IMG/VR virus record: IMGVR_UViG_3300033121_002239
Span: 9,025-73,024 of that record
Length of the DNA: 64,000 nucleotides
Reading direction: 5' to 3' (one strand)
Source of the DNA: a virus
Lineage: Duplodnaviria > Caudoviricetes
Below, in pieces: positions 1 through 43,304 of this stretch. How positions within the stretch are numbered: the first letter of the stretch is position 1; each line of letters opens with the position of its first letter. The translations under genes and the position numbers were made by a program. The notes beneath the pieces are model-generated. The model saw nothing but the letters and a program-made list of their open reading frames with translations, had not been told where the DNA came from and did no database searches.

Positions 1-617
1 CCGACGTCTTCGACGCGGGCACCCACGAGGACCGCCCGCAGGAGATCGACACAGGCCACGACGCCGGGGCGGGTGAGGACGTGGGGGACGCTCCGACGGA
101 CGTCGACGCGGGCGCAGTTCTCGACGTCCGCGGCGACGCCGTCGACGTGCCGGGAGACATCAACGGGATGTCATGCGCGACAGAGGGGGAGCGGCAGTGC
201 GCGGACCCCCACACGATGCGCCTGTGTCGTGGCGGACGGTGGGCGGCCATCCCGTGCGGGGTCGCCGTGGATGGGTTGCGGGACGAGTGCGCAGCACCCA
301 CGAACGCCTGTACGCGAAACCGACTCGCTTCGGGCTCCTCGTGCTCGAACGACACGCAGTGTAGTGACGGCTACGCCGTGTGCCTCGAAACGGGCTGCAT
401 CTGGGGAGCTCCCCTGAGTTCGTGCTTCGACGACACCGACTGCCGTTCGCGCTTCGGAGCGAGCGCTGTGATTCGGTGTGCGACCGCGACGATCTACAGC
501 ACTGCGGCGAGGGTCTGCGTGGACGTGCGGTACGACGTCCGTCCCTGCGTTCACGACCGCCAGTGCTTCACAGGATGGCGGTGTAACTATGCTGTAGGAG
601 TCTGCGTCCCACGGTGA
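1..617 (+). CDS. Cys-rich surface lipoprotein paralog 1 (5' end outside window)
   Basis: Frame is open from nt 3. An acidic DAG/DTG linker is followed by an 18-Cys C-terminal domain that aligns with 11495..12373 and 42498..43304. Confidence 0.75.
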   Translation, partial: DVFDAGTHEDRPQEIDTGHDAGAGEDVGDAPTDVDAGAVLDVRGDAVDVPGDINGMSCATEGERQCADPHTMRLCRGGRWAAIPCGVAVDGLRDECAAPTNACTRNRLASGSSCSNDTQCSDGYAVCLETGCIWGAPLSSCFDDTDCRSRFGASAVIRCATATIYSTAARVCVDVRYDVRPCVHDRQCFTGWRCNYAVGVCVPR

Positions 618-687
618 CGGCACGCCCGACGCGTCCGCAACCCGCCTGCCCTCGGCGCTCGTAGCGGCCGGGCGGGGAGGATACGGT

Positions 688-969
688 ATGCTCGCAACGA
701 ACATGGCGACCACGAAGACGAAGAAGCCCACGAAGGCACGGAAACTCACGCTGGCGGAGGTCGGACGAGAGGCTGCGAAGCGGGCGCAGAGGGATACGCT
801 GCTTGCGGAGCTCCGCGCGCAAGACTGGAACCTCTCGGCGGTGGCTCGGGAGCTCGGACTCAGCAACCCCTCAAACGTCTTGCGCTCTATCAAAACCCTC
901 GACCTCGACGCCGAGTACGAGGCCGCGAAGGACGCGGGGAAGATCGTCAAAGGCCCGCGCTCTGAATAA
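688..969 (+). CDS. Small Fis-like HTH DNA-binding protein
   Basis: LRAQDWNLSAVARELGLSNPSNVLRSI resembles a Fis/HTH_8 motif. Paralog of 13531..13824. Confidence 0.65.
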   Translation: MLATNMATTKTKKPTKARKLTLAEVGREAAKRAQRDTLLAELRAQDWNLSAVARELGLSNPSNVLRSIKTLDLDAEYEAAKDAGKIVKGPRSE

Positions 970-1022
970 TAGTCACCGAAGACAAGATTCACTGTTGACT
1001 ACTAGTCACGGGTGAGTATAGT
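970..1022 (+). promoter_or_regulatory. Sigma70-like promoter with overlapping palindromic operator
   Basis: TTGACT (995-1000), 16 nt, TATAGT (1017-1022). Palindrome TGACT-act-AGTCA at 996-1008. TAGTCAC repeated at 970 and 1003. AT-rich island. Confidence 0.6.
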
Positions 1023-1033
1023 TCTCTCGTCCC

Positions 1034-1222
1034 TTGCGTGACCCGTTCACGTCGCGCGGGACGGAGGACTTCGTGTGGCCTGACGACCTCGACACGACCG
1101 ACGATGGCGCGCTCCCGTGGGAGCGTGCGTGGATGCCCGAGGGCAGTGAGTATGAGGGAGGAGACGACCCCGACCTCGGCGCGCACGAGTGGGTGAGCAT
1201 GACGGCCGGGAGGGCGGCATGA
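1034..1222 (+). CDS. Small acidic hypothetical protein
   Basis: First ORF after the promoter, D/E/W-rich with an LPWE motif shared with 13926..14156. ATGA overlap with the next gene. Confidence 0.45.
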   Translation: MRDPFTSRGTEDFVWPDDLDTTDDGALPWERAWMPEGSEYEGGDDPDLGAHEWVSMTAGRAA

Positions 1223-1560
1223 GCCTCACGGAGCTCTTCGAGCACGTCCGCGCGCACGCGACGACCCACGGCCGCAAGGCCCTCGCGTTGCGTCTCCTGC
1301 ACGCGCAGGGCGAGGCGCACGGGGGCATCGCCTTCGCGGAGCTCACGCGCGAACTCGGGCGGGAGGTGGGGCGGGCGACGGACGTGGTAGTCATGGACGT
1401 GCAACAGGGGTGGCAGGACATGAACCCCGACACGCTCACCCGCGACGCCCGACACGCGGTGCATCTCGCCCGCATGGCCCTCGCGGCGGCGGAAGCGATG
1501 GAGCGGGAGGTCGAGGCGCACGCGGCCAAGGTCCGACACCACCGGGGCGAGGGGCTGTGA
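1219..1560 (+). CDS. Hypothetical protein
   Basis: ATG start, translationally coupled on both sides. Confidence 0.55.
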   Translation: MSLTELFEHVRAHATTHGRKALALRLLHAQGEAHGGIAFAELTRELGREVGRATDVVVMDVQQGWQDMNPDTLTRDARHAVHLARMALAAAEAMEREVEAHAAKVRHHRGEGL

Positions 1561-2819
1561 TCGTTCGCCGCGGATACCGCTATCGCATCTACCCGACGCC
1601 CGAACAGGTGGCGCGGTTGGAGGCGTGGGAGGGGGCGCTGAGGTTCCTGTGGAACGTCGCCCATGAACAGCGCCTCCACGCCTACAGTCGGTGCAAGGTG
1701 GATCGTCGGTATCCGACGGCGTTCGAGCAACGACGCGAATTGACGGAGCTTCGCACGGAGCTCCCATGGTTGGCCGATGTGCCGCGACACCTGTGCGATA
1801 GCGTGCTTGAGTCGTTGGACTCGGCGTGGGAGCGATGCTTTCAGCGACTCGCACGCGAGCCGCGCTTCAAGAGGAAGGGGCGAGACCCGTCGATCATACA
1901 CGAGTCCGACGACAGACTGTTCCGTGTCGAGGGCGACGGTCGTCACGCTTCGGTGATCTTCCCAAAGCTCGGAGCGATCCGCGCGGTGGTTCATCGTCCC
2001 CTCGTCGGCAAGGCGAAGTCCTGCACGCTCACGCGCGACGGGGATCAATGGTTCGCATCGATCTCGTGTGAGCTCGACGCCCCCGACCCCACCCCCTCCA
2101 CGAAGCCGCCCGTCGCCATTGACCGGGGCGTGGCGGTGCTCCTCGCAGACTCCAACCGGCGCACGGTCGAGAACCCGCGTGTGCTCGAACACCTGCAACC
2201 GCGAATCGCTCGCGCGCAGCGCACCGTTGCGCGGCGGGCGAAGGGATCGAAGAACCAGAAGAAGGCACGGGCCAAGGTCGCGCGGCTCCAGCGCAAGGCC
2301 CGTCGTCAGCGTGAGCATCACCTGCACGTCGAGTCGCATCACTACGCCAAGAACCACGGCGCGGTGATCGTCGAGGCGTTGAAGGTGCAGAACATGACCC
2401 GCAGTGCCCGCGGGACCGTCGAGGCGCCGGGGGTGAACGTCGCACAGAAGGCGGGGCTCAACCGCGCGATTCTTGACGCAGGATGGGGACGGTTCGCGTC
2501 GATGCTGCGCTACAAGGTCGAGGTGGAGGGAGGGCGGGTGATCGAAGTGCCCGCCGCGTACTCCTCGCAGACGTGTAGCGCGTGCGGCGTGGTCGATGGG
2601 GACTCGCGGCGCGAACAGGATGTGTTCCTGTGCATCCACTGCGGCCACCTCGACAACGCCGACGTGAACGCCGCTCAGGTATTGCTTGCGCGTGGGCTGC
2701 ACGCGCTCGCCGTGGAAGCCACGGGGACAGGCTGTGGAGGGCTCGCCACCGGGCGCCCGACGAAGCAGCAACGCCGCGTCGTGAGACGGGGCACTCGGCG
2801 CGTCACCGCGTCGAGGTAG
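1557..2819 (+). CDS. tnpB: IS200/IS605-family RNA-guided endonuclease TnpB
   Basis: N-terminal RGYRYRIYPTPEQ HTH, RuvC-I AIDRGV, RuvC-II VIVEALKVQNM, zinc finger CSACG...CIHCGH, RuvC-III DNADVNAA. GTG start overlaps the upstream stop. Confidence 0.92.
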   Translation: MIVRRGYRYRIYPTPEQVARLEAWEGALRFLWNVAHEQRLHAYSRCKVDRRYPTAFEQRRELTELRTELPWLADVPRHLCDSVLESLDSAWERCFQRLAREPRFKRKGRDPSIIHESDDRLFRVEGDGRHASVIFPKLGAIRAVVHRPLVGKAKSCTLTRDGDQWFASISCELDAPDPTPSTKPPVAIDRGVAVLLADSNRRTVENPRVLEHLQPRIARAQRTVARRAKGSKNQKKARAKVARLQRKARRQREHHLHVESHHYAKNHGAVIVEALKVQNMTRSARGTVEAPGVNVAQKAGLNRAILDAGWGRFASMLRYKVEVEGGRVIEVPAAYSSQTCSACGVVDGDSRREQDVFLCIHCGHLDNADVNAAQVLLARGLHALAVEATGTGCGGLATGRPTKQQRRVVRRGTRRVTASR

Positions 2820-8732: not shown

Positions 8733-8779
8733 GCTTCTCCCCTCCGGTCAACCTCGGATGACACGGCGGGAAGGGCGGC

Positions 8780-11434
8780 ATGTTCGACGACGACGAGCTC
8801 GACATCGGGCTGCGGGTGACGCTGAAGGATGCGTTCTCCGTCGCTGCGACGAAGATCGAAGGGGCCTGGAAGGGGCTCCAGGCGCGGCTCCGTGGGAACA
8901 CGCAGGGCCCCACGCTCCTTCAGCGCGGGCTCGACGGGGTGAAGGGCGCCGCCGAGCGCCTGAACCGCGCGCTCTCGGGCACGAACACGCTCCTCCCGAC
9001 GTTCGGGACCTTGGTTCGAACGGCCGGGTCGATGCTCCGCGACCTCATCGGCCACGCGATCCGGTCGGGCTCCGAGATCGAGAACCTCGAGCTCGCGTTC
9101 ACGACGATGCTCGGCGGCGCGGACGCGGCGCGCGCCCACCTCGAAGAGCTCCAGCGCTTTGCCCTGGGGAAACCGTTTGAATTCGCGCAGCTCGCGAGCG
9201 CCTCGCGCACGCTCCAGACCTACGGCTTCGCTGCGCGCGACGTGACGGGGCTACTGCGAGATATGGGCGACGCCGCCTTCACGGCCAACACGGGCTATGT
9301 GGGCGTCGAGCGCATGGTGCGTGTCTTCGGGCAGATTCGCGCCACCGGGCAGGCCACGAAGGGGCACCTGAACATGCTCGTCGCGTCGGGCGTCGACGCG
9401 TACGCGATCCTTCGTGAGCAACTTGGATTGACAGGGGAACAGCTCAAGAACATTGCTCGGAGCGGCATCCCCGCCGAGCGGATCATCACCGCGCTGCGCA
9501 CTGGGATGCAACAGCGCTACGGCGGCGGCATGGAACGAGCCGCCGCGACCCTGGCCGCGAAGCTCTCGGACTTGCAGGACCTCGCGGGCCTCTTCTACCG
9601 CACGCTCTACCGCGAACTCGGCCCCTACCTCATCTGGTTCATCGACAAGCTCTCGGGCGCGCTCACGGGCAACATGACCGGGATCACGCGCACGGTGAAG
9701 ACCACCGTCGCGACCATCCTCGGCCTCGGTCGCATCCTCGTGGGCGTCCTCGGGGGCGCGTTCTCGGACGTGCGCGGGCGGTGGGAGCGGGACTCGCGCG
9801 GCGCGACGCGCTCGGTGACGCAGACGCTCGAACGCTTCGCGTGGACGATCGAGGGCGTGGCGGCGCTCGTGTCGTCGGACAACGGCCGTGGCCTCGCGCA
9901 GGTGCCCCGCGGCCTCCAGCGCAACCTCGTCGACCGTGGCTTGTGGCCGACGGTCGTCGCGATGGCGCGCGTCTTCAACCGCCTGCGCGCGCTCGTCGGC
10001 GGCTTCGTCGAGGGCCTCGCGCGAGGCTTCAACGATGGCGCGCGCCGCATCCGCGTCGTGACCGACGCGCTCGGCCTCACGCAGGCGGGCATGACCATGA
10101 CCCGCGCCGAGGCCACGCGCCTCGGGGAGCGCCTCGGGCGCCTCGTGACGATGCTGGCCCTCGTGAAGGCCGCGACGCTCGCCGTCCGCGCCGCGGGCCT
10201 GATCACTCTGCCCGTTCTGCGGCTCCTCGGGCCGACGCGCGACCCGATCACGGGGAAGTTCGTCGCGGGCAACGCCGCGTCGCTCGCGCAGGCCCTCGGC
10301 CGCCAGCTCCTCGCCACGGGTCGCGCCCTCCCGGGCGTCCTCGCGCAGACGCGCATCGGGATGGAGCGCCTCGCGGGCGTGTCGCTGCGCTTCGCGCTCG
10401 CGAACCCCGTCCTCACGGCCGTCGCGCTCGCCGTCGTGGCGATCGGCCTGGCCTCGCTCTGGGCCTACCGCCACGCCGACCAGCTCGCGTCCTCGTCGCC
10501 GAAGTGGCGCGCGCTGCGCGTCGCCCTGAACCTCGTCTTCGGTCCCTTCATCGAACTCGCGGTGCTCCTCGGGCGCACCGACGGGTCCTTCGAGCGGTTC
10601 CGCGGGCGCGTCGTCGCGGGGGCGCAGTCGCTCTGGCGGGCGCTCTATCCGCTGCGCGTGGCCGTCGCCCTGATCGTGCTCGCGTGGTACGTCGTGCAGG
10701 CGCGCGTCGCGATGGCGCTCGCGTGGATGGTCGGCGCCCTCGCGCGGGCGGCGGTGTGGATCGGGGGCATGGTGGGCCGCGCCGCCCTCGCGATCGGCCG
10801 CTACCTCACCGCCCCCTTCGTGGCCCTCTTCGGGTGGATCCGCGCGCACGTCGGGGTCTTCGCGGCCATCGCCCGCGTCCTCTTCGCGCCGTTTCTCTTC
10901 GCCGCGCGGTTCGCGTTCGGGCTCGTCCTCGGCGTGCTGCGGGCCGTCGGGGGCTTTCTTGAGCGCCGGTTCGGGCTGCACCTCGCCGGGGCGCGGCTCG
11001 CCCTCGTGCTCCTCGTGGGCGCGATCCGCACGAGCTTCACGTCGCTCCCGAACCTCCTCCTCGCCCCCTTGCGCCTCGTGGCGCGCGAGATCGTGTCGAT
11101 GTACCGCGGTCTCCCGGCGGCCCTTCGCCCCGCGGGCCTGGAGGGCGCGGCGCGGACCCTGGAGACCTTCGCCCAAGGCCCCGCGACCCCCGCGCAGGCG
11201 GGCGCCGTGGTGGACACCCAGGCGGCCGGCGCGGTGACGTCCGCGAACGTCGCCCGCACGACGAGCGTGATGGCCGCCGCGCAGACCCCGGCCGCGGCCC
11301 CGACGGTGGTCGTTCCGCCCCCGCCCCCGGGCACGACCGTCGTGCAGATTGACGGCCGCGAGATCCTGCGCGCGGTCGATCGGCAGAACACCACCACGGC
11401 CCTGCGCGGCGGGCGCGCGGTCGAGACGGAGTAG
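8780..11434 (+). CDS. Tail tape measure protein (inverted relative to the tail operon)
   Basis: Tape-measure domain ENLELAFTTMLGGADAARAHLEELQRFA..PFEF...GQIRATG, long amphipathic/hydrophobic helices, and the typical C-terminus VQIDGREILRAV. Confidence 0.9.
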   Translation: MFDDDELDIGLRVTLKDAFSVAATKIEGAWKGLQARLRGNTQGPTLLQRGLDGVKGAAERLNRALSGTNTLLPTFGTLVRTAGSMLRDLIGHAIRSGSEIENLELAFTTMLGGADAARAHLEELQRFALGKPFEFAQLASASRTLQTYGFAARDVTGLLRDMGDAAFTANTGYVGVERMVRVFGQIRATGQATKGHLNMLVASGVDAYAILREQLGLTGEQLKNIARSGIPAERIITALRTGMQQRYGGGMERAAATLAAKLSDLQDLAGLFYRTLYRELGPYLIWFIDKLSGALTGNMTGITRTVKTTVATILGLGRILVGVLGGAFSDVRGRWERDSRGATRSVTQTLERFAWTIEGVAALVSSDNGRGLAQVPRGLQRNLVDRGLWPTVVAMARVFNRLRALVGGFVEGLARGFNDGARRIRVVTDALGLTQAGMTMTRAEATRLGERLGRLVTMLALVKAATLAVRAAGLITLPVLRLLGPTRDPITGKFVAGNAASLAQALGRQLLATGRALPGVLAQTRIGMERLAGVSLRFALANPVLTAVALAVVAIGLASLWAYRHADQLASSSPKWRALRVALNLVFGPFIELAVLLGRTDGSFERFRGRVVAGAQSLWRALYPLRVAVALIVLAWYVVQARVAMALAWMVGALARAAVWIGGMVGRAALAIGRYLTAPFVALFGWIRAHVGVFAAIARVLFAPFLFAARFAFGLVLGVLRAVGGFLERRFGLHLAGARLALVLLVGAIRTSFTSLPNLLLAPLRLVAREIVSMYRGLPAALRPAGLEGAARTLETFAQGPATPAQAGAVVDTQAAGAVTSANVARTTSVMAAAQTPAAAPTVVVPPPPPGTTVVQIDGREILRAVDRQNTTTALRGGRAVETE
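8781..8877 (+). repeat. Inverted repeat, left copy (5' end of the tape-measure gene)
   Basis: 95/97 nt identical to the reverse complement of 14860..14956, with mismatches only at 8841 and 8845. Confidence 0.95.
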
Positions 11435-11455
11435 CCTGAACGCATGTCCAGGCTA

Positions 11456-11494
11456 CCGTGACCTCCGCGGGCTGTGGTTCCGTACCCTCGCACC
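11456..11494 (+). promoter_or_regulatory. Putative leaderless promoter of the lipoprotein moron
   Basis: CCGTGACC..CCGCGG..CCGTACCCTC is conserved at 42460-42497. TACCCT lies exactly 6 nt before the ATG in both copies. Confidence 0.5.
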
Positions 11495-12373
11495 ATGCGC
11501 TTCCCCCTCGCCCTTCTCCTGCTCACGCTCGTTGCCTGCGGCTCCTCGAACAACGGCGCGGCGCCCTGCGTCGGCGGGCAGACCATTGCGTGTCCGTGTG
11601 CGGGCGGAGGGATGGGGACGCAGACGTGCCAGAGCGACGGGCGCTACTCGGCGTGCGTCTGTCCCGACGCCGCGACTGTGGTCGACGTCGTCGCCCCGGT
11701 AGACGCGCCCGCCGACCGGGAGCTCCCGCCACCCGACCGGACACCGAGCGGGGAGGACGTGGCAGAGGCAGGGGGCGAGACCGGGACGGCCGTCGACGAC
11801 GTCGCTCTGGTGCTCGACGCGGGCACCCCCGACGACGGCCCGCAGGGGATCGACACGGGGGCGGAGGTGGATGTGCCCGCCGACCGGGAGAATCCGCCCG
11901 ATGCCAGGACCACGGTCGACGTCGTCGTAGATCGCCCGTGCGCCGAGGGGACGGTGGAATGCTCCGGGGCCACTACGATGAGGGTGTGCCGCGGGGGCGC
12001 GTGGACAGAGGTGTCATGCGGGCGCTCGACCGACGACCGCCAGGAAGTCTGCACACCGAGCACGAACGTCTGTTCGATCCGTCCGTCCGTGACAGGCTCC
12101 TGCACCTCGAACAACCAGTGCGGCTATGGGTACTACGGCTGTGTCGCGGGGTCGTGCGTGTGGCGAGGCGCGGTGGCTTGCGTCGATGACCTCGGCTGTC
12201 GGGACGTCTTCGGCGAGTTCTCGAACTTCCGGTGCGTGCCCGTCACGATCTACGGCCAGACCGCGCGAGCCTGCCAGGAAGCCGCCTACCCACCGCGGGC
12301 GTGCGTGATCGACGCGCAATGCCTCGCCACCTATCGGTGTAACGTGCAGAGCGGGTTCTGCGTCCGGCGCTGA
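11495..12373 (+). CDS. Cys-rich surface lipoprotein paralog 2
   Basis: Signal peptide and lipobox (LLLLTLVA-C), myxobacterial-type CVGGQTIACPC module, acidic linker, 18-Cys C-terminal domain. Confidence 0.8.
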   Translation: MRFPLALLLLTLVACGSSNNGAAPCVGGQTIACPCAGGGMGTQTCQSDGRYSACVCPDAATVVDVVAPVDAPADRELPPPDRTPSGEDVAEAGGETGTAVDDVALVLDAGTPDDGPQGIDTGAEVDVPADRENPPDARTTVDVVVDRPCAEGTVECSGATTMRVCRGGAWTEVSCGRSTDDRQEVCTPSTNVCSIRPSVTGSCTSNNQCGYGYYGCVAGSCVWRGAVACVDDLGCRDVFGEFSNFRCVPVTIYGQTARACQEAAYPPRACVIDAQCLATYRCNVQSGFCVRR

Positions 12374-12376
12374 GGG

Positions 12377-13393
12377 TCAGAACTTCGGCTTGGGCGTGCG
12401 CTTGCGACGGCGGGTCGGGTCGAACTCGATCACCGACTTGATCTCGGTCTGTTGCCCCTTGCCCTTCTCGCGGGCTTCGCGGGCCTTGGCCTGCGCCTCA
12501 CGGATGACCCGGCGCCGGTCCTCATCGACCTCCCGCATGAGGCGCCCGATGAAGCGTTGCGCCCGCGCGAGCTTGACCCGCTCCAGCTTCTCCCACCGGG
12601 TGTCCTCGCCGTTGAACTCGACCTCATTGCGGAGGCGTTTGTCGTAGCTCATCCGGCGCGACACGTTGAGCTTGCCGGGGGTGGTCGGGTCGGCAGAGAG
12701 GAGCCGCAGCGGGACGAGGATCTCCCGCTCGGCGACCTCCGGCCCGATCACGCCCGAGGCGACGTCGGCCTCGACGCGACCGACCCGACTCTCCATCGCG
12801 TCGAGTCGGTCGTTGGAGGGGACGGCGATCCCGACGGCCTTGAGCACCTCGGGCACGGCCGCACACACGACCTGGGGGACGATCGACGCGAGGAGCTGCT
12901 GAAGGGTCTCCAGGGTGAACGCGGCGGGCGGGGTCGCACCGGGGAGGGTGGCCGTCCCGGTCGCCCTGAGCTGGGGCAGGACGTGGTCGGCCAGGAGCTT
13001 GCGCAGCTTGCGGCCCTTCTCGGTGAGCGAGAGCAGGAGCGCCTTGTCGATGCCACCCGCGGTCAGCACCATGAGGAACCGCGCTCCGCCACGGCCGCGC
13101 GAATGACTACACTCCGAAGTGTAGTCATTCCGAAGCGCTTGAAACTCCGCGAGTTCGGCGTTTGCGAGCATGAGGAAGTCCGTGCCTTCCTCGAACTCCC
13201 CGGACCACCCGCCTCGAATTTGGTCAACGATCTTCCGTCCGCGCTCGTACACGACCTCGCCCACCTGCGCGGCGGGCCAGACCCAACGGTCGCGGAAGTA
13301 GACGGCGGTGATCGTCTTGCCTTCGAACTCGATGATGCGGGTGAGGGTCGTGGGCGCATCGTGCGGTTGCGTTTTTTGCGTGCTGTCTCTCAT
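12377..13393 (-). CDS. Bro-N/ORF6N-like phage antirepressor
   Basis: IEFEGKTI..WVWPAAQVG...GTDF...LTAGGI..LLLS.TEKGRKLRKLLADHVLPQLRATG. Confidence 0.7.
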   Translation of the reverse strand: MRDSTQKTQPHDAPTTLTRIIEFEGKTITAVYFRDRWVWPAAQVGEVVYERGRKIVDQIRGGWSGEFEEGTDFLMLANAELAEFQALRNDYTSECSHSRGRGGARFLMVLTAGGIDKALLLSLTEKGRKLRKLLADHVLPQLRATGTATLPGATPPAAFTLETLQQLLASIVPQVVCAAVPEVLKAVGIAVPSNDRLDAMESRVGRVEADVASGVIGPEVAEREILVPLRLLSADPTTPGKLNVSRRMSYDKRLRNEVEFNGEDTRWEKLERVKLARAQRFIGRLMREVDEDRRRVIREAQAKAREAREKGKGQQTEIKSVIEFDPTRRRKRTPKPKF

Positions 13394-13530
13394 GGTGAGA
13401 GTGCCTCCTTTGCGGATTTCGCCCATGCAAGATGATCGCCCGATCAGTGCCAACGGCACGGTGGATGCGTCCCGGCGCAACCCATCCGAGGGGGCGAGGA
13501 GTACCCTTCGAAGGAGAGGGGTGATAGGCG

Positions 13531-13824
13531 ATGAGCATGGCGACCACGAAAAAGTCCGCGCAGCCGAAGAAGCCCGCGGCCAAGACGAGGAAGAAGAGCA
13601 AGCTCACAATCGCGGGCGAGGAGGCATCACGGCTCGCGCGAAGGACCATGCTCCAGGCCACCCTCACGGCCTGCGGCTGGAATCTGTCAAAGGCCGCGGA
13701 GCTGCTGGACATGACGAGCGCGTCGGACGTGATCCGAGCGATTGGTGAACTCGACCTGGACAAAGAGCTTCTCGCGGCTCGTGAACGCGGGGACGTGGCC
13801 CGCGGTCGGCGCTGGTTTATTTGA
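13531..13824 (+). CDS. Small Fis-like HTH DNA-binding protein
   Basis: LTACGWNLSKAAELLDMTSASDVIRAI. Paralog of 688..969. Confidence 0.65.
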   Translation: MSMATTKKSAQPKKPAAKTRKKSKLTIAGEEASRLARRTMLQATLTACGWNLSKAAELLDMTSASDVIRAIGELDLDKELLAARERGDVARGRRWFI

Positions 13825-14851: not shown

Positions 14852-14957
14852 CCCTCGAAAGCCCCTTCCAGGCCCCTTCGATCTTCGTCGCGGCGGCGGA
14901 GAACGCATCCTTCAGCGTCACCCGCAGCCCGATGTCGAGCTCGTCGTCGTCGAACAC
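14778..14957 (-). pseudogene. Tape-measure 5' stub (about 33 TMP codons plus unrelated tail, 59 aa) at the canonical TMP position
   Basis: GTG TTC GAC GAC GAC GAG CTC... matches the TMP N-terminus. It begins 24 nt after the chaperone extension stop and has a GAAGGGG RBS. Confidence 0.85.
14860..14956 (-). repeat. Inverted repeat, right copy
   Basis: Partner of 8781..8877. Confidence 0.95.
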
Positions 14958-14981
14958 GGCACCCCTTCGGGGGTGTCACCG

Positions 14982-36542: not shown

Positions 36543-38181
36543 GGCGCCGAGCGGGGGTCAGGGGACGGCCGGGAAGAGCATCATGCGGATCGCGAAGGAG
36601 CTCGCCGCGCGCACCGAGGGCCAGCCGCAGCGGGCGCCCGCGTAGGTCGGGGTCGCGAGGCGGGGCGTGGGGTTGAGCGGGGTGTTCGCCGGGATGCGCA
36701 CGCCCTTGTCGCCCGTGGCCGGGGACGGCTTGAACGTGAGTTCGTACGCCGCCGAGGCGCCCTCGATGAGGAGGGCGTAGCTCATGCCCTGGAACTCCGC
36801 GGGCGGCGTGATCGTCGTCCACGCGGTCGGGTCGGCGTCGGTCGTGACCTCGACGACGAGGGGGTAGGTGGGGGCGGAGGCTTCGCGGGCGTTGTCCTCG
36901 TAGTTCGCCATGGCGCCTCTTCGAGGGGGTCACCCGCGGCGAGTACTTTCGAAGGCCGACGGGATCACCGGAGCGGTTCGGGCGACGGCTCCGCGTGCAC
37001 GACCTCGCCGTGCTGGACGTGGTAGACCCACGTCGAGAGGCGCGCACGGCGGGACCGAACAGCTCCAACTGAGGCAGATGTTCCGCGCGTGACGAACGAC
37101 GATGCGACGCGCCGCCGGGTGTCGCGCGAGCCATCCCGCGCAGGTGGGTCGCGACCGCGACGCCCATCACCTCCGCGAGCAGCGGCGGCACCGCGTTGCC
37201 GATGAGCGCCGTGATCTCCTCCTGGGTGCCCTTGAACCGGAAGTCGTCCTCGAACGTCTGGAGCCGCGCGCCTTCGCGCAGCGTGATGTTCCGGTCCTCG
37301 GACGGGTGCGCGAACATGCCGCGCGTGAAGCTGTCGAACCGCGCGGTGATCGTCGCGCCGGGCGCGTCGGCGTCCAGGCGCCCGTAGACGTTGCGGTGTC
37401 CAATGCGGTCGGCGCCCTGCTTGTGACACTCGACGCGGAGGTCCACGGGCAGGCTCTCGAACCCCTTGCCCGGCGGGATCAGGCGCAGGCGCTCCAGGTT
37501 CTTCTTGGACAGCCGCATCCGGTAGTGCAGCGGGTCGCTCGCGCTCGCGCGGTCGGGCGCCGGAGGCGGGAGGTCGCCAATCGCATCCCGAACCGTCCGA
37601 AAGGTCCCCTCCTCGTGCGTCGCCGGGGGCGGGTCGAAGGGCGCCACGTCGGCCGTGCGCCAGCCGAAGCACAGCACGCGACGGCGCCGCTGCGGCACCC
37701 CGTAGTCCGCGGCGTTGATGAGCGCGGCGCGGTAGAGGTAACCGCCGTGAGCCAGCGTCGCGCCGAACCGCTTCAGCACCTTCCGACCGCGCTGCCCGAG
37801 GAGGCCGGGCACGTTCTCCATGATGAACATGCGCGGACGGACCTCGCAGACGAACCGCCCGAAGGCGAAGACCAGATCGTTGCGGGGGTCTTCATCCTCC
37901 CCGCGACGCTGAATCGAGAACCCCTGACATGGAGGACCGCCCACGATGAGGTCGACGGGGACCGGCTCGTGTCGGATGCCCCGCCAGAAGGACTCAGCGG
38001 TGAGCGTCCCCACGTCCGCGCGGAGCACGGGGTGCTTGAAATTCAGCTCGTAGTTCTCTACCGCGACCTTCCACGCGTCCACCGCACCGATCACCTCGAA
38101 CCCGGCGCGCATCAGGCCCACGGAGAACCCCCCGGCGCCGGAAAACAGGTCGATAGCAGTGAGAGGTGACTTCGGGTCCAT
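36442..38181 (-). CDS. DNA cytosine-5 methyltransferase 2 (catalytic part about 37050..38181; the frame runs on without a normal stop)
   Basis: DLFSGAGG, GGPPCQGFS, ENVPG, QRRRRV, RNITLREGARLQTF, GNAVPP. Confidence 0.9.
   Translation of the reverse strand: MDPKSPLTAIDLFSGAGGFSVGLMRAGFEVIGAVDAWKVAVENYELNFKHPVLRADVGTLTAESFWRGIRHEPVPVDLIVGGPPCQGFSIQRRGEDEDPRNDLVFAFGRFVCEVRPRMFIMENVPGLLGQRGRKVLKRFGATLAHGGYLYRAALINAADYGVPQRRRRVLCFGWRTADVAPFDPPPATHEEGTFRTVRDAIGDLPPPAPDRASASDPLHYRMRLSKKNLERLRLIPPGKGFESLPVDLRVECHKQGADRIGHRNVYGRLDADAPGATITARFDSFTRGMFAHPSEDRNITLREGARLQTFEDDFRFKGTQEEITALIGNAVPPLLAEVMGVAVATHLRGMARATPGGASHRRSSRAEHLPQLELFGPAVRASRRGSTTSSTARSCTRSRRPNRSGDPVGLRKYSPRVTPSKRRHGELRGQRPRSLRPHLPPRRRGHDRRRPDRVDDDHAARGVPGHELRPPHRGRLGGVRTHVQAVPGHGRQGRAHPGEHPAQPHAPPRDPDLRGRPLRLALGARGELLRDPHDALPGRPLTPARRRAPVAPDRPARPLADARPGGARSRRLGCRPRRP
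36558..36911 (-). CDS. Hypothetical beta-rich protein
   Basis: AAGAGG RBS and ATG; overlapped by the run-on frame of the C5-MTase. Confidence 0.5.
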   Translation of the reverse strand: MANYEDNAREASAPTYPLVVEVTTDADPTAWTTITPPAEFQGMSYALLIEGASAAYELTFKPSPATGDKGVRIPANTPLNPTPRLATPTYAGARCGWPSVRAASSFAIRMMLFPAVP

Positions 38182-38185
38182 CCGT

Positions 38186-39565
38186 TCAGTCGGACGCTAC
38201 CACGTCCGGCCACGGCAGTGTCAGCGTCCCGCTGCGCTCGCCCGCCTTGATGCCGGGGATCATCCGGGAGAAGGAGGTCCCAACGGGCCGCGTGAGCCCT
38301 CGGTCGAACGTCTCGGCGGGAGGGGGCGAACTCACCAGCTCACCCGCGACGTGGAGCGCCACGGTGGCCGCGAACACTGGCGGCACCGCGTTACCGACCT
38401 GTCGAAACTGCTCGTCGAACGACCCGGTGAGCCCGTAGTCCGCCGGGAAGCCCTGGAGCAGCGCCGCTTCGCGCACGGTGAGCCCACGGTCCTGTTCGGG
38501 GTGCACGAAGCGCCCGCTCGCCGGGTTGCGCGCGTAGGCGGTGATCGTGATGGCCGGGCGATCCCAGCGCAGCCGCCCGTACACGTCCTCGTAGATGGCC
38601 TTGCCCCGGCGTGCGTGCGCCCTGCGGAGGCACTCCGGGCCGATGTTGGCTGGACGATTCCCTCCGTCCTTGGGAACGGCGCGGATGACCTCCAGCGTCG
38701 AGGCGCGGTGGTCCGCGGAGAAGTGCATGGGGTCGTGCGGGTCGCGCACGCCCGCCGCGACCGGGCGCAGGTCCCCGATCGCCATACGCACGGTGCGGAA
38801 GTCCGAGCGATTCAGGAACCCGCGCGGCGCGCGAAAGGGGTGCGGCATGGCCAGCAGGAGCGCGCGGAACCGCTCTTGCGGGACGCCGAACTCGGCCGCG
38901 TTGTGGACGCCAAGGTAGACGAAGTACCCCGCCTCTTCCAGCATCCGGCGCACCTTGGCGACGAAGGGCCAGTACCGGTTGGTCAGGAGCTCCGGCACGT
39001 TCTCGACGACGATAGCCGCAGGTCGCATCCGTGTGGCGACGCGCGCGAAGTCGAGCAGGAGCACGTTGCGTTCGTCGCCTTCCCCCGCCTCGTTGCGGTG
39101 CGAGGAGAATCCCTGGCAGGGCGCGCACCCGATGAGGACGAACGGATGCTCGGGCCGCAGCGCCGACGCGGCCAGATCCCGCGTAAGGGCCGGGCGCTTC
39201 GCAAACGCCGTCACGCTCTCGGCGACGGGGACGACCCCAAGGTTGGCGCGGTAGGATTCGTTCGCGACCGTGTCGATGTCCACCGCGGCGGCGAGTCGGA
39301 ACGTCGGCACCAGACCGTTGACCGCGCGGAAGCCGGCCGACATGCCGCCGCAGCCGCTAAACATGTCGATCACGTCGATGGGGCCTTCGGGGTGCGCCGC
39401 CCGCCAATGCGTGTCGAGGCCCGTCGCAAGGGCGACGGCGCCCTGTGCGGCGCCACGACGGACGGTGTTGGCGTCCGCCGCATCACCGGCGTGCGCAAGG
39501 CCCGCCAGCCTCCACCGCAACTCCTCGGCCCACGAGGGGACCGCATTCCGCACAGAATACACCAT
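38186..39565 (-). CDS. DNA cytosine-5 methyltransferase 1 with N-terminal extension
   Basis: DMFSGCGG, GCAPCQGFS, ENVPE, QERFR, RGLTVREAALLQGFP, GNAVPP; AGGAG RBS. Confidence 0.92.
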   Translation of the reverse strand: MVYSVRNAVPSWAEELRWRLAGLAHAGDAADANTVRRGAAQGAVALATGLDTHWRAAHPEGPIDVIDMFSGCGGMSAGFRAVNGLVPTFRLAAAVDIDTVANESYRANLGVVPVAESVTAFAKRPALTRDLAASALRPEHPFVLIGCAPCQGFSSHRNEAGEGDERNVLLLDFARVATRMRPAAIVVENVPELLTNRYWPFVAKVRRMLEEAGYFVYLGVHNAAEFGVPQERFRALLLAMPHPFRAPRGFLNRSDFRTVRMAIGDLRPVAAGVRDPHDPMHFSADHRASTLEVIRAVPKDGGNRPANIGPECLRRAHARRGKAIYEDVYGRLRWDRPAITITAYARNPASGRFVHPEQDRGLTVREAALLQGFPADYGLTGSFDEQFRQVGNAVPPVFAATVALHVAGELVSSPPPAETFDRGLTRPVGTSFSRMIPGIKAGERSGTLTLPWPDVVASD

Positions 39566-39599
39566 GACGACTCCTGGGGCGTAGCCCGATTCGACGTCC

Positions 39600-39854
39600 T
39601 CAACGCCGAGCGCGGGGTGGCTTGGCGCGGGGCGGCTTGGCCCGCGTCGCCGGGGTGCGAGGGGCCGCCTTCGCGCGGGAAGCGGCAACCTTGGCGACAT
39701 TCCTCTCCAGGAACTCGCGGATGAGCTTGGCGATCAGGGTGCTCTTCTTGTGGCCCTCCCGCTCGCAGTAGTCCGAGAGCCGGTCATAGTCCTCGGGGGT
39801 GAGGAGGACGTTGACGCGGGGGGCGCGTTCCTTCGTTCGTGTCGCCTTGGCCAT
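39600..39854 (-). CDS. Ribbon-helix-helix (CopG-like) controller protein
   Basis: RVNVLLTPEDYDRLSDYCEREGHKKSTLIAKLIREFL; AGGAGG RBS. Confidence 0.75.
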   Translation of the reverse strand: MAKATRTKERAPRVNVLLTPEDYDRLSDYCEREGHKKSTLIAKLIREFLERNVAKVAASRAKAAPRTPATRAKPPRAKPPRARR

Positions 39855-39885
39855 CGGTTCGCTTCCTCCTGAACATGCAGCCATT

Positions 39886-39903
39886 GTGTGGACTTGTCCA
39901 CAC
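39886..39903. promoter_or_regulatory. Palindromic operator upstream of the RHH-MTase operon
   Basis: GTGTGGAC-TT-GTCCACAC, a perfect 8-bp inverted repeat. Confidence 0.7.
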
Positions 39904-40087
39904 TAATACGCACTCGTGTAACGCGCGATTGCGCCGTTCACGCCCCGTCTCGCGACCGGCGACGCGCACGCCCGCGCACCCGCGGCGCCACACGCTCCGG
40001 CTCGTGCGGTGCCGGAACGCGACCGTAACAAGTCGCCACACGGCCTCGCCAATTCTCGCCAAAGGTGTGCCCCTCGAAGGGTCGTGG

Positions 40088-40215
40088 CTACGTGCCGCGC
40101 TCCCCGAGGAACTTCCTGAGGCGCTTGCTCAACGCGTCCTCGTCGCGCATTTCGCATGCCCACACGACGAGCGCCGTCCACCCCGCGGCGGCGAGTGCGG
40201 CGAGGTTCTGCGCGC
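40088..40215 (-). pseudogene. vsr: C-terminal remnant of Vsr very-short-patch endonuclease
   Basis: QNLAALAAAGWTALVVWACEMRD..L..RLRKFL matches the Vsr C-terminus. The N-terminal catalytic part is absent. Confidence 0.7.
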
Positions 40216-40471
40216 CCTCTACCGCCGCGCGTACGCCTTCCTCGACACCGAGACGGGGGAGGTCACGGTCTCGCCCGCGGGCCACCGCGCCGCCTCGAAC
40301 GTGCTCGCGGGCGAGGGCTTCACGAAGCGCACGCGCGGGGGCGTGGCGTACGTGTGGTCGCCCCCGAAGCCCACCCTCGAAGAGCTCCAGGCCGCCGACG
40401 CGAAGTGTGCCGAGCTCCAGGCGTGGCTCCGCGACTATCTCGCCCGCGCGGGGCAGGACGTGCCACGATGA
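40211..40471 (+). pseudogene. 3' fragment of a phage gene truncated at the cassette junction
   Basis: RAYAFLDTETGEV...DVPR* has no start codon or RBS and is coupled (ATGA) to the next gene. Confidence 0.4.
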
Positions 40472-40749
40472 GGCGCATGACGACCTCGAAGAAGGCCCCC
40501 GACGTGGCGGAGCGGCTCAAGGCGGCGCGCGAGGGGCGCGGGCTCACCGTCGCCGAGCTCGCGCGGCGCGCGCGGGTCGAGGGCGAGCCGATCTCCCGGC
40601 AGGCCGTGATGAAGATCGAGGCGCGCGACGTGACGAACCCCGGCGTCCTCACCGTCGCGGGCCTCGCCGAAGCGCTCGAAGTGCCCGCGGCGTGGCTCGC
40701 GTACGGCGTCGGCCCCACCCCCGCGGGGTTGACCGCCGCGAAGGCGTGA
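40468..40749 (+). CDS. XRE-family HTH regulator
   Basis: ERLKAAREGRGLTVAELARR..ISRQAVMKIE..LAEALEVPAAWLAYG. Confidence 0.8.
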   Translation: MRRMTTSKKAPDVAERLKAAREGRGLTVAELARRARVEGEPISRQAVMKIEARDVTNPGVLTVAGLAEALEVPAAWLAYGVGPTPAGLTAAKA

Positions 40750-40823
40750 CGCGGCGTGGAGCAGGCTGGTAGCTCGCCGGGCTCATAACCCGAAGGCCGT
40801 AGGTTCAAATCCTACCGCCGCGA
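40750..40823 (+). tRNA. tRNA-Met(CAT), initiator-type body with C1-G72 pair; CCA not perfectly encoded (ACCCA)
   Basis: Full cloverleaf: GGTA D-loop, GGG/CCC anticodon stem around CTCATAA, GTAGG-TTCAAAT-CCTAC T arm. Confidence 0.92.
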
Positions 40824-41084
40824 CCCAAGCCCCAGGACCGAGCTTCTACCGCACGGGAGCGGCGTGTGAGGACCTGGGGCTTCTCCCGCTCCTCATCGCC
40901 CGACCGGCAAGACGCCTGCACGCAGGCGCTCCCCGCGAACAGGCCGCCCCGACGGCCTGGGGCGCACACGAAAGAACCCCCCGCGCGTCGCCCGAGACCC
41001 CGAGGTTGCTCATCGAGCATGGGGCCAAGCGGGCGAAGAAGCGCGCGGGGGGATCGGTCCTTTTCCTGCACGCCGTCGTTCGTC

Positions 41085-41393
41085 ATGGATGATGAATACG
41101 ACGACCCGTGCCACGACACGGACCACGAAGACGACGGGGGCTACGCGGACGACGCGGACGATGAGGGCCGCGAAGAGGAGAGGTGCGCGCAGTGCCTCCA
41201 CTTCGGGGACTACCAGTGCGAAACGCACGGCCCGGCCGCGATCGAGGCGCAACGGCAGTACGCGGAGTTCCACATGCTGAAGGAGGCGCTCGAAAGCGTG
41301 CTCGCGCTCCCCGACGCGTGGTCTTCGCCCGCCGCTGCGCAGCTCCAGAAGGTCGCGCGCGAGGTGCTCACGGAGATGGAAAAGGTCGGATGA
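41085..41393 (+). CDS. Acidic hypothetical protein with CxxC
   Basis: D/E-rich N-terminus; CAQC..CETH. Confidence 0.5.
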   Translation: MDDEYDDPCHDTDHEDDGGYADDADDEGREEERCAQCLHFGDYQCETHGPAAIEAQRQYAEFHMLKEALESVLALPDAWSSPAAAQLQKVAREVLTEMEKVG

Positions 41394-41746
41394 GGCGTTA
41401 CGACCACGACGAAGCCACGCGCCTCTACACCATTGAGGAGTGGACAACCACGCGGCTCGCGGCGCACTTTCGTGTGAGCGTCGGTAGCATGAGCGCAATG
41501 CTGCGCAGGCGCGGCGTCGCGCTCCGCGGGAACGCTCACCACCTCGACGGCCAGCGCATCGGGCGCCTGGTCGTGCTCGGGCGCGAGGGGCTCTCGCCGC
41601 GCGGGGCTGTCCTTTGGCGGTGTCGGTGCGACTGCGGCGCGGAGGTCGTGGTCTGCACGATGCGGCTCGTGCGCGACAAGCATCGCAAGCGCACCTGTGG
41701 CGCAATGGTGTGTCGCAAGGCCGAACGTGCGCAGAGGGCGACATGA
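41390..41746 (+). CDS. HTH plus homing-endonuclease-type N-terminal DNA-binding module, no nuclease domain
   Basis: LDGQRIGRLVV..WRCRCDCG..V..L..TCG. Confidence 0.6.
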   Translation: MRRYDHDEATRLYTIEEWTTTRLAAHFRVSVGSMSAMLRRRGVALRGNAHHLDGQRIGRLVVLGREGLSPRGAVLWRCRCDCGAEVVVCTMRLVRDKHRKRTCGAMVCRKAERAQRAT

Positions 41747-42465
41747 CCCGTCCAACGCGTGCTCACGAGGACGACCGCAACCCGGACGTCTACTGGATGG
41801 GACCGGGACATCCGCTCGGGTGGGTGCCTGGAACGCCCGCGTACGAGCGCGTGCGCAAGGTGCTGCGTCCGATGTGGTACGTCGACTTCAAGCTCGACTT
41901 GCGTGCACTCCGCGAGGCCGTGCGGCCGAAGTCGCCCGCCGACCGCAAGCCGCTCGTCCTGCTTGATCAGGCCGAGACCCCCGATGGACGCTACAACCTG
42001 TGCGTCGCGCTCGTCGAGGAAGACGAGGATACGCGCCCAGCCCACGACGCACCCGAGGCGTGGGAACTGGTCTACAGCCTGTGCGTGGCACGGGAGACGT
42101 TGACGCGCGCGCTCGCCGCCCTCCCTGACGTCGATTGCGCCACCGCGCTCGTGCACGGGCCTCGCGCACCGATGGAGATCCTGGCGGGTGGCATGACGGT
42201 GATCGCGTCGACGTGGGCGACGTGCCCGGAGGCGCACCGTCGCGACGGTGGGCGGTATTACGAGAAGGGCGAGGCGTACGAGTGCCCCGCGCGCGACTGC
42301 GCAATGGGGCGTGTGTTCGGGTGGGATTGGACCGAACCTGTTCGGTGGGTGTTCTGCGAAGGGATCGGGGAGCAAGGGCGCAGCGTGTGGGTGCCGACGC
42401 CCAACACCACAAGCGAGAAGGTCGATGGGCTGATCGCGCGTTCAGGTTCGCCCGATCTCCCGTGA
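41743..42465 (+). CDS. Hypothetical protein
   Basis: ATGA-coupled, 240 aa. Confidence 0.55.
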   Translation: MTRPTRAHEDDRNPDVYWMGPGHPLGWVPGTPAYERVRKVLRPMWYVDFKLDLRALREAVRPKSPADRKPLVLLDQAETPDGRYNLCVALVEEDEDTRPAHDAPEAWELVYSLCVARETLTRALAALPDVDCATALVHGPRAPMEILAGGMTVIASTWATCPEAHRRDGGRYYEKGEAYECPARDCAMGRVFGWDWTEPVRWVFCEGIGEQGRSVWVPTPNTTSEKVDGLIARSGSPDLP

Positions 42466-42497
42466 CCCGCCGCGGAGGGCTCCCGTACCCTCCGGCC

Positions 42498-43304
42498 ATG
42501 CGGTTGCCGCTCTCCTGCCTCTTCCTCGCCCTCACGCTCGCCGCCTGTTCGTCCGATCACGCCGCGCCCCCGCCACCCACCGACGCGGGCCCCGAGGTCG
42601 GCGGAGACGTACTGATTCTGCCCGACGTGGGGACGGACACGGGCACGGACACCGGGGCGGACCTCGGCGACGTCGACGCGGGCCTCGGGGACGTGGCGAC
42701 CGATCAGGAGCTCCCGCTCGACGCAGGCCCCGAGACGAGCACCCCCGACGCGGGCGGTGAGGATCGGGTGGACGTCGGCGGCCCGCTCGACGTGCCCGAG
42801 GACCGGCCGCAGCTCCCGACGGACACCGGGTCGGACACGGGCGGGGACGTCGGGGTCGACGTCGTCGCCGATCGACCGACGTGCACCGAGGGAACGACCG
42901 AGTGTTCGAACGCGACGACGATGCGGGTGTGCCGGGGCGGGAGCTGGACGTCGATCGCGTGCGGGCGCTCGGCGAGCGGGACGCAGGAGGTGTGCACCGC
43001 GAGTTCGCGCGCGTGCGGCCTCGCGTCGCCCCCCTGCACGGCCGACGCGCAGTGCGGCTACGGGTACGTGGCCTGCGTCGCCGCCGTGTGCCTCTGGCGG
43101 GGGACGGTGGCCTGCACCGACGACCTCGCGTGCGAGGACGTGTACGGGGCGGGGGCGCCGTTCCGGTGCGTCGCCGCGACGTTCCACGGCCAGGCCGTGC
43201 GGGTCTGCCAGGAGATGAGCTACGCGCCGCGGCCGTGCGTGCTCGATCGCCAGTGCCCGACCGGCAGGCGGTGCGAGGTCGCGACGGGCCTGTGCGTGCG
43301 GTGA
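42498..43304 (+). CDS. Cys-rich surface lipoprotein paralog 3
   Basis: Lipobox LTLAA-C, acidic DTG/DAG linker, 18-Cys domain; same upstream promoter motif as paralog 2. Confidence 0.8.
   Translation: MRLPLSCLFLALTLAACSSDHAAPPPPTDAGPEVGGDVLILPDVGTDTGTDTGADLGDVDAGLGDVATDQELPLDAGPETSTPDAGGEDRVDVGGPLDVPEDRPQLPTDTGSDTGGDVGVDVVADRPTCTEGTTECSNATTMRVCRGGSWTSIACGRSASGTQEVCTASSRACGLASPPCTADAQCGYGYVACVAAVCLWRGTVACTDDLACEDVYGAGAPFRCVAATFHGQAVRVCQEMSYAPRPCVLDRQCPTGRRCEVATGLCVR

Follow-up and report, generated by a model that had tools for sequence, protein, structure and literature searches.

A fixed place beside the tail spike gene suggests that a cysteine-rich phage lipoprotein blocks the entry of rival phages

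The lipoproteins Llp of T5, Cor of T1 and phi80, and Rtp45 lie at the periplasmic face of the outer membrane, where they keep the cell from being infected again and progeny from being lost to debris; the genes of all three share a locus with the receptor-binding or entry gene (PMC12685063, PMC9586334, PMC11990801). Llp and Rtp45 are encoded at receptor-binding loci (PMC12685063, PMC11990801). In T4, the exported periplasmic protein Spackle binds and acts on the incoming central tail spike, which results in superinfection exclusion (PMC7677548). The HK97 moron gp15 sits between the chaperone and tape measure genes, and which phages it excludes is determined by features of their tails (PMC3594210). 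Ltp of TP-J34 is a surface lipoprotein of modular repeat architecture that blocks DNA injection (PMC3952083).

Three paralogous lipoprotein genes are encoded in the window, i.e. the whole stretch of 64,000 nt analysed here, which comes from a 73-kb myovirus-like IMG/VR contig (Table 1). The phage (G000) is uncultivated and derives from wastewater; the clade carrying the lipoprotein family is common in wastewater and activated sludge. No isolated phage in INPHARED was matched by megablast with 20 kb or by tblastn with copy 2, and the portal is at most 34% identical to that of any isolated phage. In a comparison with a close 92-kb relative (G001), a large serine recombinase was found only in G001 and a tyrosine integrase in neither; the temperate lifestyle of the phage is uncertain. 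Four metatranscriptome libraries also contain the phage. Their contigs are likely DNA carry-over, because they are kilobases long and evenly covered over the late, early and lipoprotein genes.

Table 1. Lipoprotein genes and neighbouring features in the window (nt positions).
Feature	Position	Strand	Description
Copy 1, 3' two thirds	1..617	+	lipobox LVAC, 6-Cys mini-module, acidic tether, 18-Cys head
Fis-type HTH_8 gene, small	688..969	+	follows copy 1; same pairing in L010 and L015
TnpB (IS605 OrfB)	1410..2819	+	end of the G000-specific insert carrying copy 1
Inverted repeat, left arm	8759..8877		119 nt, 92% complementary
Tape measure gene	8780..11434	+	PF20155; inverted relative to the late operon and to G001
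Promoter-like element, copy 2	11458..11488	+	GTGACC-N19-TACCCT, ends 6 nt before ATG
Copy 2	11495..12373	+	292 aa; lipobox LVAC, 6-Cys mini-module, acidic tether, 18-Cys head
Gene B	12377..13480	-	367 aa, no family match; convergent with copy 2, 3-nt gap
Second small Fis-type HTH_8 gene	13531..13824	+	within the copy-2 insert
Inverted repeat, right arm	14860..14978		119 nt
Promoter-like element, copy 3	42462..42491	+	GTGACC-N18-TACCCT, ends 6 nt before ATG
Copy 3 (resident, spike-linked)	42498..43304	+	268 aa; lipobox LAAC, acidic tether, 18-Cys head
Central tail spike gene	43306..43950	-	Phage_base_V OB domain, VgrG-related

The three paralogs reported in a preliminary description of this DNA are present, and a search of the phage's own genome with copy 3 retrieved copy 2 (E 1e-58) and copy 1 (E 2e-31). 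Copy 1 starts 286 nt upstream of the window; its full gene encodes 300 aa (1228-2130 in parent-contig coordinates, L003). The proteins (27-30 kDa; mature form about 250-285 aa) share a common layout: a lipobox at residues 11-17, an acidic tether of 110-140 aa (pI 4.05), and a C-terminal head of about 145 aa. A lipobox is also found in the distant members, and lysine is almost absent family-wide. The heads are 41-58% identical among the paralogs and contain exactly 18 Cys each, every one of them aligned. The scaffold consensus first proposed holds overall, except that its 'RPC' is 'RAC' in copy 2; the layout was also correctly described apart from the 6-Cys mini-module, which follows the lipobox in copies 1 and 2 but not in copy 3. 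With such an anatomy, the lipoproteins would be exported and located in the envelope. The orthologs are under purifying selection: their heads are 96.5% identical with a dN/dS of 0.25-0.39, the head being slower to evolve than the tether. Diversifying selection among orthologs was therefore rejected on the head dN/dS, and the 'diversified' family of the preliminary description is better read as old paralogy.

The motif GTGACC-N17-19-TACCCT-N6-ATG precedes each of the three genes; it is conserved, resembles a -35/-10 pair and has a leaderless geometry. For copy 1, the motif and a lipobox of the same type were read in the parent contig. The pattern GTGACC-N16-20-TACCCT occurs twice in the window (0.01 expected), upstream of copies 2 and 3 and nowhere else. 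The distant members L011, L017 and L050 keep a TAC..T hexamer 6-7 nt upstream of the ATG. Around copy 3, an E. coli-type promoter scan gave no match and no intrinsic terminator was found; the stops of copies 2 and 3 are only 1-3 nt from those of convergent genes. The motif suggests that the lipoprotein genes have their own promoter, and together with the lipobox it supports the earlier proposal that these are exported lipoproteins, each with a conserved upstream element resembling a promoter.

Copy 3 is convergent with the only Phage_base_V gene of the contig, and a single nucleotide separates the two stops (43304 and 43306), as was first noticed. Every homolog with enough flanking sequence sits at a Phage_base_V spike gene, including relatives of about 30% identity. 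The convergent order is found in G000, G001, L006-9, L047, L048, L017, L018, L011 and L050; the exceptions are L015, in which the genes are in tandem, and L012, in which one gene lies between the lipoprotein and the spike. The lipoprotein partner stays across spikes of 31-100% identity, whether convergent or tandem. The same is seen from the spike side: spikes alike over most of their length carry a lipoprotein partner, whereas matches limited to the N-terminal region, mostly in low-GC phages, are without it. Since adjacency to the spike holds down to relatives of about 30% identity, copy 3 is, as judged from gene context, a conserved spike partner and resident gene and no sporadic moron. Gene adjacency demonstrates linkage; an interaction with the spike is not proven by it.

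Copies 1 and 2 differ from copy 3 in this respect. Both are absent from G001, which lacks the two inserts that carry them. The inserts have a GC content of 0.68 versus 0.71 for the contig, and the head GC3 is 0.77 and 0.85 in copies 1 and 2, versus 0.91-0.96 in copy 3; copy 3 itself (GC 0.75) is conserved in all relatives and shows no downward deviation. The tape measure gene and the copy-2 cassette lie together between the two arms of the 119-nt inverted repeat. No convincing inverted repeats flank the flipped hub gene of G001. The pair of copy 2 and gene B is also found in L115/L116, and L010 holds a hybrid cassette. Gene B was ruled out as a second spike, as it shows no similarity to one. 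Copy 2 does directly follow the tape measure gene in this genome (11434 to 11495), as had been stated; however, this link is not conserved, and in L115/L116 the cassette follows the tail chaperone. Comparison of the genomes thus identifies copies 1 and 2 as true add-ons on mobile cassettes, which behave as morons. Of the claim that each copy is a self-promoted moron, the moron part stands for these two but not for the resident copy 3.

The family is rare. Only 12 matches were found among 1.84 billion representatives, and all recovered genomic contexts were phage-like contigs. Two pattern scans of 185k species genomes revealed no relative, although scans that rely on patterns may overlook distant members. 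Homologs that are ordinary chromosomal genes unlinked to entry genes would have spoken against an exclusion role; they were looked for among representatives and species genomes, and none was found. Pfam, NCBIfam, PHROGs and PADLOC gave no significant match for copies 1-3. The last ~30 residues of 5 of the 11 members examined matched DUF7107 (Pfam PF23416; best E 0.0087), below the gathering threshold (10.2 bits for the first member versus a cut-off of 24.6). A profile search against all PDB sequences, a set that should include the entries of the cited Llp, Rtp45 and Spackle, returned nothing at E < 0.05. Within these searches, the family appears unannotated and restricted to phages. The head model is confidently predicted (pLDDT 91.3, pTM 0.80) and has no clear known fold; Foldseek searches of the head against PDB and BFVD gave no relative (TM <0.3).

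The fixed place beside the tail spike suggests that the lipoprotein blocks the entry of rival phages. Its most likely function, by analogy with Llp, Cor, Spackle and gp15, would be to block phage entry at the envelope or to mask a receptor. The analogy to entry-linked exclusion lipoproteins, already drawn in the preliminary description, gains weight from the spike adjacency in every informative relative. In the proposed model, a Sec/Lsp signal with a lipobox would be followed by a long, acidic, disordered tether and a compact, lysine-free head; because nine disulfides would hold the head, it must fold outside the cytoplasm. Within a clade of high-GC myoviruses, the founding gene is a fixed neighbour of the central tail spike gene; it would have a promoter of its own that probably yields a leaderless mRNA. 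Further, diverged copies move on small cassettes that would carry their own promoter and are inserted among the tail genes. An infected or lysogenic cell would show the head either inside the periplasm or on its outer membrane, where it might bind the tip of an arriving tail, by the spike or the tape measure, or mask an envelope structure engaged by the spike. As a result, phages of the same spike type would be kept out and progeny would not be lost to cell debris, and heterotypic extra copies would extend the block to rival phages. Taken as a whole, a phage-restricted, lipid-anchored, spike-linked and entry-blocking family with mobile extra copies is the best explanation, tentatively held at somewhat less than an even chance.

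A more specific version is doubtful: the lipoprotein might be an exclusion factor cognate to the neighbouring spike and co-evolving with it, with orphan heterotypic copies on mobile promoter-bearing cassettes that shut out other spike types. If true, the orphan copies would match, on the phage side, the arrays of orphan immunity genes found in polymorphic toxin systems. Exclusion would then rely on a new lysine-free fold with nine disulfides, carried by a tether that could reach across the periplasm.

Alternatively, the protein might be an envelope-remodelling accessory unrelated to entry, whose glycan-binding or adhesive head alters the surface of the host and thereby influences aggregation, predation, biofilm formation, the exchange of outer membrane or the recognition of kin; the spike site would then be merely a tolerated insertion site. 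The first ~55 head residues weakly resemble the chitin-binding module CBM14 in six structures (Z 3.0-3.9 over 42-55 residues), and Pfam CBM_14 was matched in 1 of 11 members (E 0.026). However, all these fold matches are far under significance, and the best Z of 3.9, from the VIA wide search and a second look, concerns these residues only, the other parts of the model being barely compared. The avoidance of lysine would fit exposure to external proteases, and the nearest Atlas clusters are Cys-rich Myxococcota proteins; however, no chromosomal homologs were found among the representatives and species genomes. These weak Atlas leads and the high GC are all that the search added to the myxobacterial host and kin-recognition role suggested earlier, which was not upheld. 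A mere hotspot would moreover hold varied cargo, whereas the same family is kept across the whole range of spikes and in both gene orders. Envelope remodelling is therefore considered unlikely.

It is less probable still that the protein helps the phage's own cycle, either as a periplasmic release factor (spanin-like or a cell-wall tether) or in its own spike or DNA passage. The o-spanins are also lipoproteins, a module that may bind glycan or the cell wall is present, and the lipoprotein is both tightly linked to an entry gene and under purifying selection. However, neither an endolysin nor a holin nor an i-spanin-like gene adjoins any copy; the neighbours are the spike, the tape measure, HTH_8 and unknown genes without lysis-family matches. 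Both these neighbours and the length of the mature protein led to rejection of an o-spanin; with its size and nine disulfides, the lipoprotein does not resemble a spanin. A protein made in the infected cell would also come too late to aid entry of the genome that encodes it, and a single essential step would not account for three diverged copies of which a close relative can do without two.

A shield against contractile weapons is very improbable. The head would neutralise VgrG/gpV-type spikes of tailocins or type VI secretion, like a periplasmic immunity lipoprotein. Type VI periplasmic immunity proteins are often lipoproteins, the phage spike is VgrG-related, and one genome holds several heterotypic copies; however, the family is found only in phage contigs at phage spikes and never at type VI or tailocin clusters, and PADLOC gave no match. 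Lastly, a structural part of the virion or tail tip is hardly credible and was rejected on anatomy and neighbourhood: the gene adjoins tail genes, but phage tails assemble in the cytoplasm, whereas a protein with a cleavable lipoprotein signal and nine disulfides should be exported and folded under oxidising conditions, and copy 3 lies on the strand opposite to the late operon with its own promoter-like element.

The putative entry-blocking lipoproteins can thus be compared with the described systems. Like Llp, Cor and Rtp45, all three copies have a lipobox signal, and the gene adjoins an entry gene, here the Phage_base_V spike in all informative contexts. However, the family is new, without sequence or fold relation to these proteins, which are about 6-8 kDa and have neither a tether nor a disulfide-rich head; its members are four times the size of the known exclusion lipoproteins. 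Llp, Cor and Rtp45 belong to siphoviruses, pair with a receptor-binding protein and target a known porin or transporter, whereas the new family is paired with the central spike of a myovirus. T4 Spackle is no lipoprotein, and its gene does not adjoin gene 5. It is small and helical, shows no similarity to the new family, and inhibits the gp5 lysozyme domain; whereas the spike here (214 aa) matches Pfam/NCBIfam only in its OB and VgrG-related parts, with no lysozyme domain. The copy-2 cassette of L115/L116 uses the same slot as HK97 gp15; however, gp15 belongs to the YebO family, is small, resides in the inner membrane and has numerous homologs on chromosomes, unlike the large lipoprotein, for which the species-genome pattern scans found none. 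Ltp of TP-J34 acts in a Gram-positive host, has helical HTH-like repeats without similarity to the new family, and is encoded in the lysogeny module and not beside tail genes. Whatever the function, the head is a confidently predicted disulfide-rich domain to which no structure is clearly related, and lysine is avoided across the family. The lipoprotein and spike gene pair is a testable candidate for a periplasmic protein that recognises a tail spike, and the mobile extra copies offer a natural experiment on the widening of phage exclusion range. If the proposed function holds, the family would represent a new, structurally unrelated class of entry-blocking lipoproteins, coupled to the central spike of contractile-tail phages and not to the receptor-binding protein of siphoviruses.

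The three lipoprotein ORFs claimed in the preliminary description all translate as described (Table). Copy 1, which is cut by the window edge, is whole in the parent contig. Each copy has a short signal peptide with a terminal lipobox (LVAC in copies 1 and 2, LAAC in copy 3), followed by an acidic, Lys-free tether of 111-139 residues (pI about 4; D, G, T, P, V and A abundant), and a head of 140-147 residues with 18 Cys in perfect alignment. A 6-Cys mini-module is located right behind the lipobox in copies 1 and 2, and copy 3 is without it; the head identity among the paralogues is 41-58%. Judged from these sequence features, the lipoproteins appear to be built for export and lipid anchoring, and the head would need an oxidising compartment. 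The genes also carry their own conserved upstream element: CGTGACC, 17-19 nt, CCGTACCCT, 6 nt and the ATG, and no Shine-Dalgarno sequence is present ahead of any of the three copies. Within the window this pattern is confined to copies 2 and 3 (0.01 expected). Since CCGTACCCT is positioned as a -10 element would be for transcription beginning at the A of the start codon, a leaderless mRNA can reasonably be inferred; a scan for E. coli-type promoters made no call at the element. A TAC..T hexamer 6-7 nt 5' of the ATG was also found in the distant homologues L011, L017 and L050, whose proteins share only about 35% identity.

Table. Locations of the lipoprotein genes and associated features.
Feature	Location	Strand	Details
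Copy 1	window <1-617; L003:1228-2130 (parent contig)	+	300 aa
Copy 2	window 11495-12373	+	
Copy 3	window 42498-43304	+	
Spike gene	window 43306-43950	-	Phage_base_V
Gene upstream of spike	window 43943-44908	-	weak sigma-70 region 4 match; replication operon end
Insert 1	contig 7459-11849		repeat protein, copy 1, HTH_8, small ORF, TnpB
Insert 2	window 11435-14860		copy 2, convergent gene B, second HTH_8, small ORF
Gene B	window 12377-13480	-	367 aa, without family match
HTH_8 genes	window 688-969, 13531-13824; L010:1246-1527; L015:2217-2531		Fis-type
TnpB	window 1410-2819		IS605 OrfB, Cas12f-like TNB domain
Repeat protein	L005:7466-8659 (parent contig)	-	397 aa, between hub and copy 1
Baseplate hub	L005:5991-7520; L023 = G001:55033-56481		
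Inverted repeat	window 8759-14978		119 nt, 92% complementary
Serine recombinase	G001:37971-38414		open frame 564 aa
5.5-kb segment	window 36956-42429		two C5 cytosine methylase genes, tRNA-Met (40750-40825), several plus-strand ORFs
DUF4352-like genes	L011:7007-7531; L012:1812-2567		

Searched exhaustively with HMMER, 1.84 billion representative proteins yielded only 12 matches to the family. The 18-Cys group comprises four clusters among these matches; a second set (240-326 aa) has the same layout of lipobox, acidic tether and head, with two extra Cys. Two further members came from word-based searches, and 17 of the 18 Cys are invariant across 13 family members. No member was found among 50,697 phage records. 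Ordinary chromosomal homologues, which would count against the preliminary description, were also sought, and none appeared within reach of two pattern scans of species genomes (one genome per species, 185,579 species). In the maximum-likelihood tree, the 18-Cys group formed one clade (100/100) with three lineages, namely copy 3, copy 2 with the homologue L115, and copy 1 with the homologue L010. The 20-Cys relatives fell outside this clade, and those of known context are all spike-linked.

The lipoprotein gene is retained beside the spike gene: a Phage_base_V gene adjoins every homologue with enough flanking DNA. The two genes are convergent in the close relatives (L006-L009, L020 of the relative genome G001, L047 and L048), and the same holds for the distant L017 and L018, where the stops are 2-6 nt apart. 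They are convergent with a 30-nt gap in L050, where the spike is 31% identical to that of the window; in L015 the two genes share a strand, the lipoprotein immediately following the spike (spike identity 32%, E 6e-13). In L011 it lies 1 nt from a cut ORF matching the C-terminus of the L017 spike, and in L012 one DUF4352-like gene stands between lipoprotein and spike. DUF4352-like genes occur beside the lipoprotein in both of these distant relatives. Searching metagenome contigs from the spike side, all matches with E 1e-20 or better and enough flank (L047, L048 and L050) had the partner; L049 is a 1.3-kb contig with part of the spike gene only. Weaker matches, confined to the N-terminal region and mostly from low-GC phages, were without a lipoprotein partner. 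The parent contig has one Phage_base_V gene, which is remote from the baseplate cluster. Copy 3 had been taken for a moron, but it is no sporadic one: the spike adjacency throughout shows it to be a partner in a conserved gene pair, and its GC3 of 0.91-0.96 indicates a long-term resident. The 5.5-kb segment of the window (Table) is replaced by only ~430 nt in L006 and in contigs of runs X16/X17, and the spike gene is immediately preceded by a putative sigma-like gene.

Copies 1 and 2 are add-ons. The close 92-kb relative G001 shares 88-92% identity with the parent contig (G000) across most shared genes, and has only one family member, which is spike-linked. Two inserts of G000 are absent from G001, both with a GC of 0.68, below the contig value. 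Each adjoins a tail gene (hub, tape measure) that differs in orientation between G000 and G001. In the window, the tape measure and the late operon are on opposite strands, whereas the two are collinear in G001, which is without the 3.4-kb insert; a long inverted repeat flanks the tape measure together with the copy-2 insert. In G001 it is the hub gene that is inverted, as compared both with G000 and with the neighbouring baseplate genes of G001, and no convincing inverted repeat was found flanking it there. Thus, one essential tail gene is flipped in each genome (the tape measure in G000, the hub in G001), and the flipped genes adjoin the sites of the G000 lipoprotein cassettes.

The proposed adjacency of copy 2 to the tape measure is present in the window; however, it is not conserved. 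In L115/L116, the copy-2 cassette has the same 5' boundary and starts ~20 nt past the tail chaperone stop instead of behind the tape measure; HK97 gene 15, the original moron, occupies this slot (PMC3594210). L010 has a 5' end of copy-2 type joined to another head, and its 3' flank is of copy-1 type. The lipoprotein cassettes are mobile and recombining. A small HTH_8 gene is located just downstream of the lipoprotein at copy 1, L010 and L015, and one gene further on at copy 2, and could belong to the mobile cassette. The copy-1 insert ends with a TnpB gene without TnpA. The repeat protein has about five degenerate repeats around W..AAHPG, no family match, and is absent from G001.

The window covers bases 9025-73024 of the parent contig, a linear IMG/VR virus contig (73 kb, GC content 71%, CheckV completeness 68%). 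Pfam and PHROGs recognised the gene set of a contractile-tail phage: portal, prohead protease, capsid and terminase; tape measure, baseplate J/I/gp25, hub and a single gpV/VgrG-type spike; DnaB, a helicase and several methylases. Identity of the portal to those of isolated phages does not exceed 34%, and a 20-kb megablast found no close isolated phage. Near-identical DNA is present in metagenomes from wastewater, activated sludge and rivers (11 studies). Weak Atlas leads hint at a Myxococcota host. No tyrosine integrase was found in G000 or G001. The part of G001 beyond the coverage of G000 encodes a large serine recombinase, possibly an integrase or an invertase. In RNA libraries with this phage the contigs are long, even and span all gene classes, a pattern resembling DNA carry-over.

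The copies had been described as diversified; however, ortholog heads are 96.5% identical with a dN/dS of 0.25-0.39, so the diversification reflects old paralogy under purifying selection. Among orthologs the tether changes faster than the head, and through recombination. Lysine is absent from all 860 residues of the three copies, against a mean of 3.1% in eleven other proteins of the same phage (chance about 2e-12, by our own arithmetic); the three heads together have 41 Arg and no Lys, and the 13 members tallied, copy 1 included, have four Lys in total. Resistance to a Lys-specific protease or avoidance of cross-linking are guesses at the reason.

An envelope factor matched to the phage entry apparatus would be the best fit to these data, and is tentatively preferred. 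Known phages provide analogies: in small siphoviruses, exclusion lipoproteins are encoded in the same locus as receptor-binding proteins (PMC11990801, PMC12685063, PMC9586334); the periplasmic T4 Spackle binds the tail spike of the incoming phage (PMC7677548), and HK97 gp15 excludes phages by tail type (PMC3594210). The AlphaFold2 model of the head (11-sequence alignment) is all-beta-rich and confident (pLDDT 91.3, pTM 0.80), and Foldseek found no fold relatives in PDB or BFVD. An exhaustive structural scan gave a best Z of 3.8-3.9 over the first ~55 head residues only, resembling CBM14 chitin-binding modules; sub-threshold Pfam matches were to DUF7107 in five of 11 members and to CBM_14 in one. 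These likenesses are leads and give no assignment. A surface-remodelling, glycan-binding protein is an unlikely alternative reading of the family, and a helper of the phage's own cycle is distinctly improbable. No lysis genes lie near the lipoprotein genes and two of the copies can be dispensed with, which makes a lysis role unlikely. That the protein shields against other contractile weapons is very doubtful. Phage tails are assembled in the cytoplasm, and a virion part is therefore highly improbable.

Compared with known systems, the envelope factor proposed here belongs to a familiar kind: genes for exported lipoproteins next to the tail or entry genes of phages, acting or thought to act in exclusion. 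What is new is a family without annotation, whose disulfide-rich head, confidently modelled and unmatched, sits on a long tether; its obligate pairing with the central spike of a myovirus over deep divergence; the mobile heterotypic extra copies; and the avoidance of lysine throughout the family.
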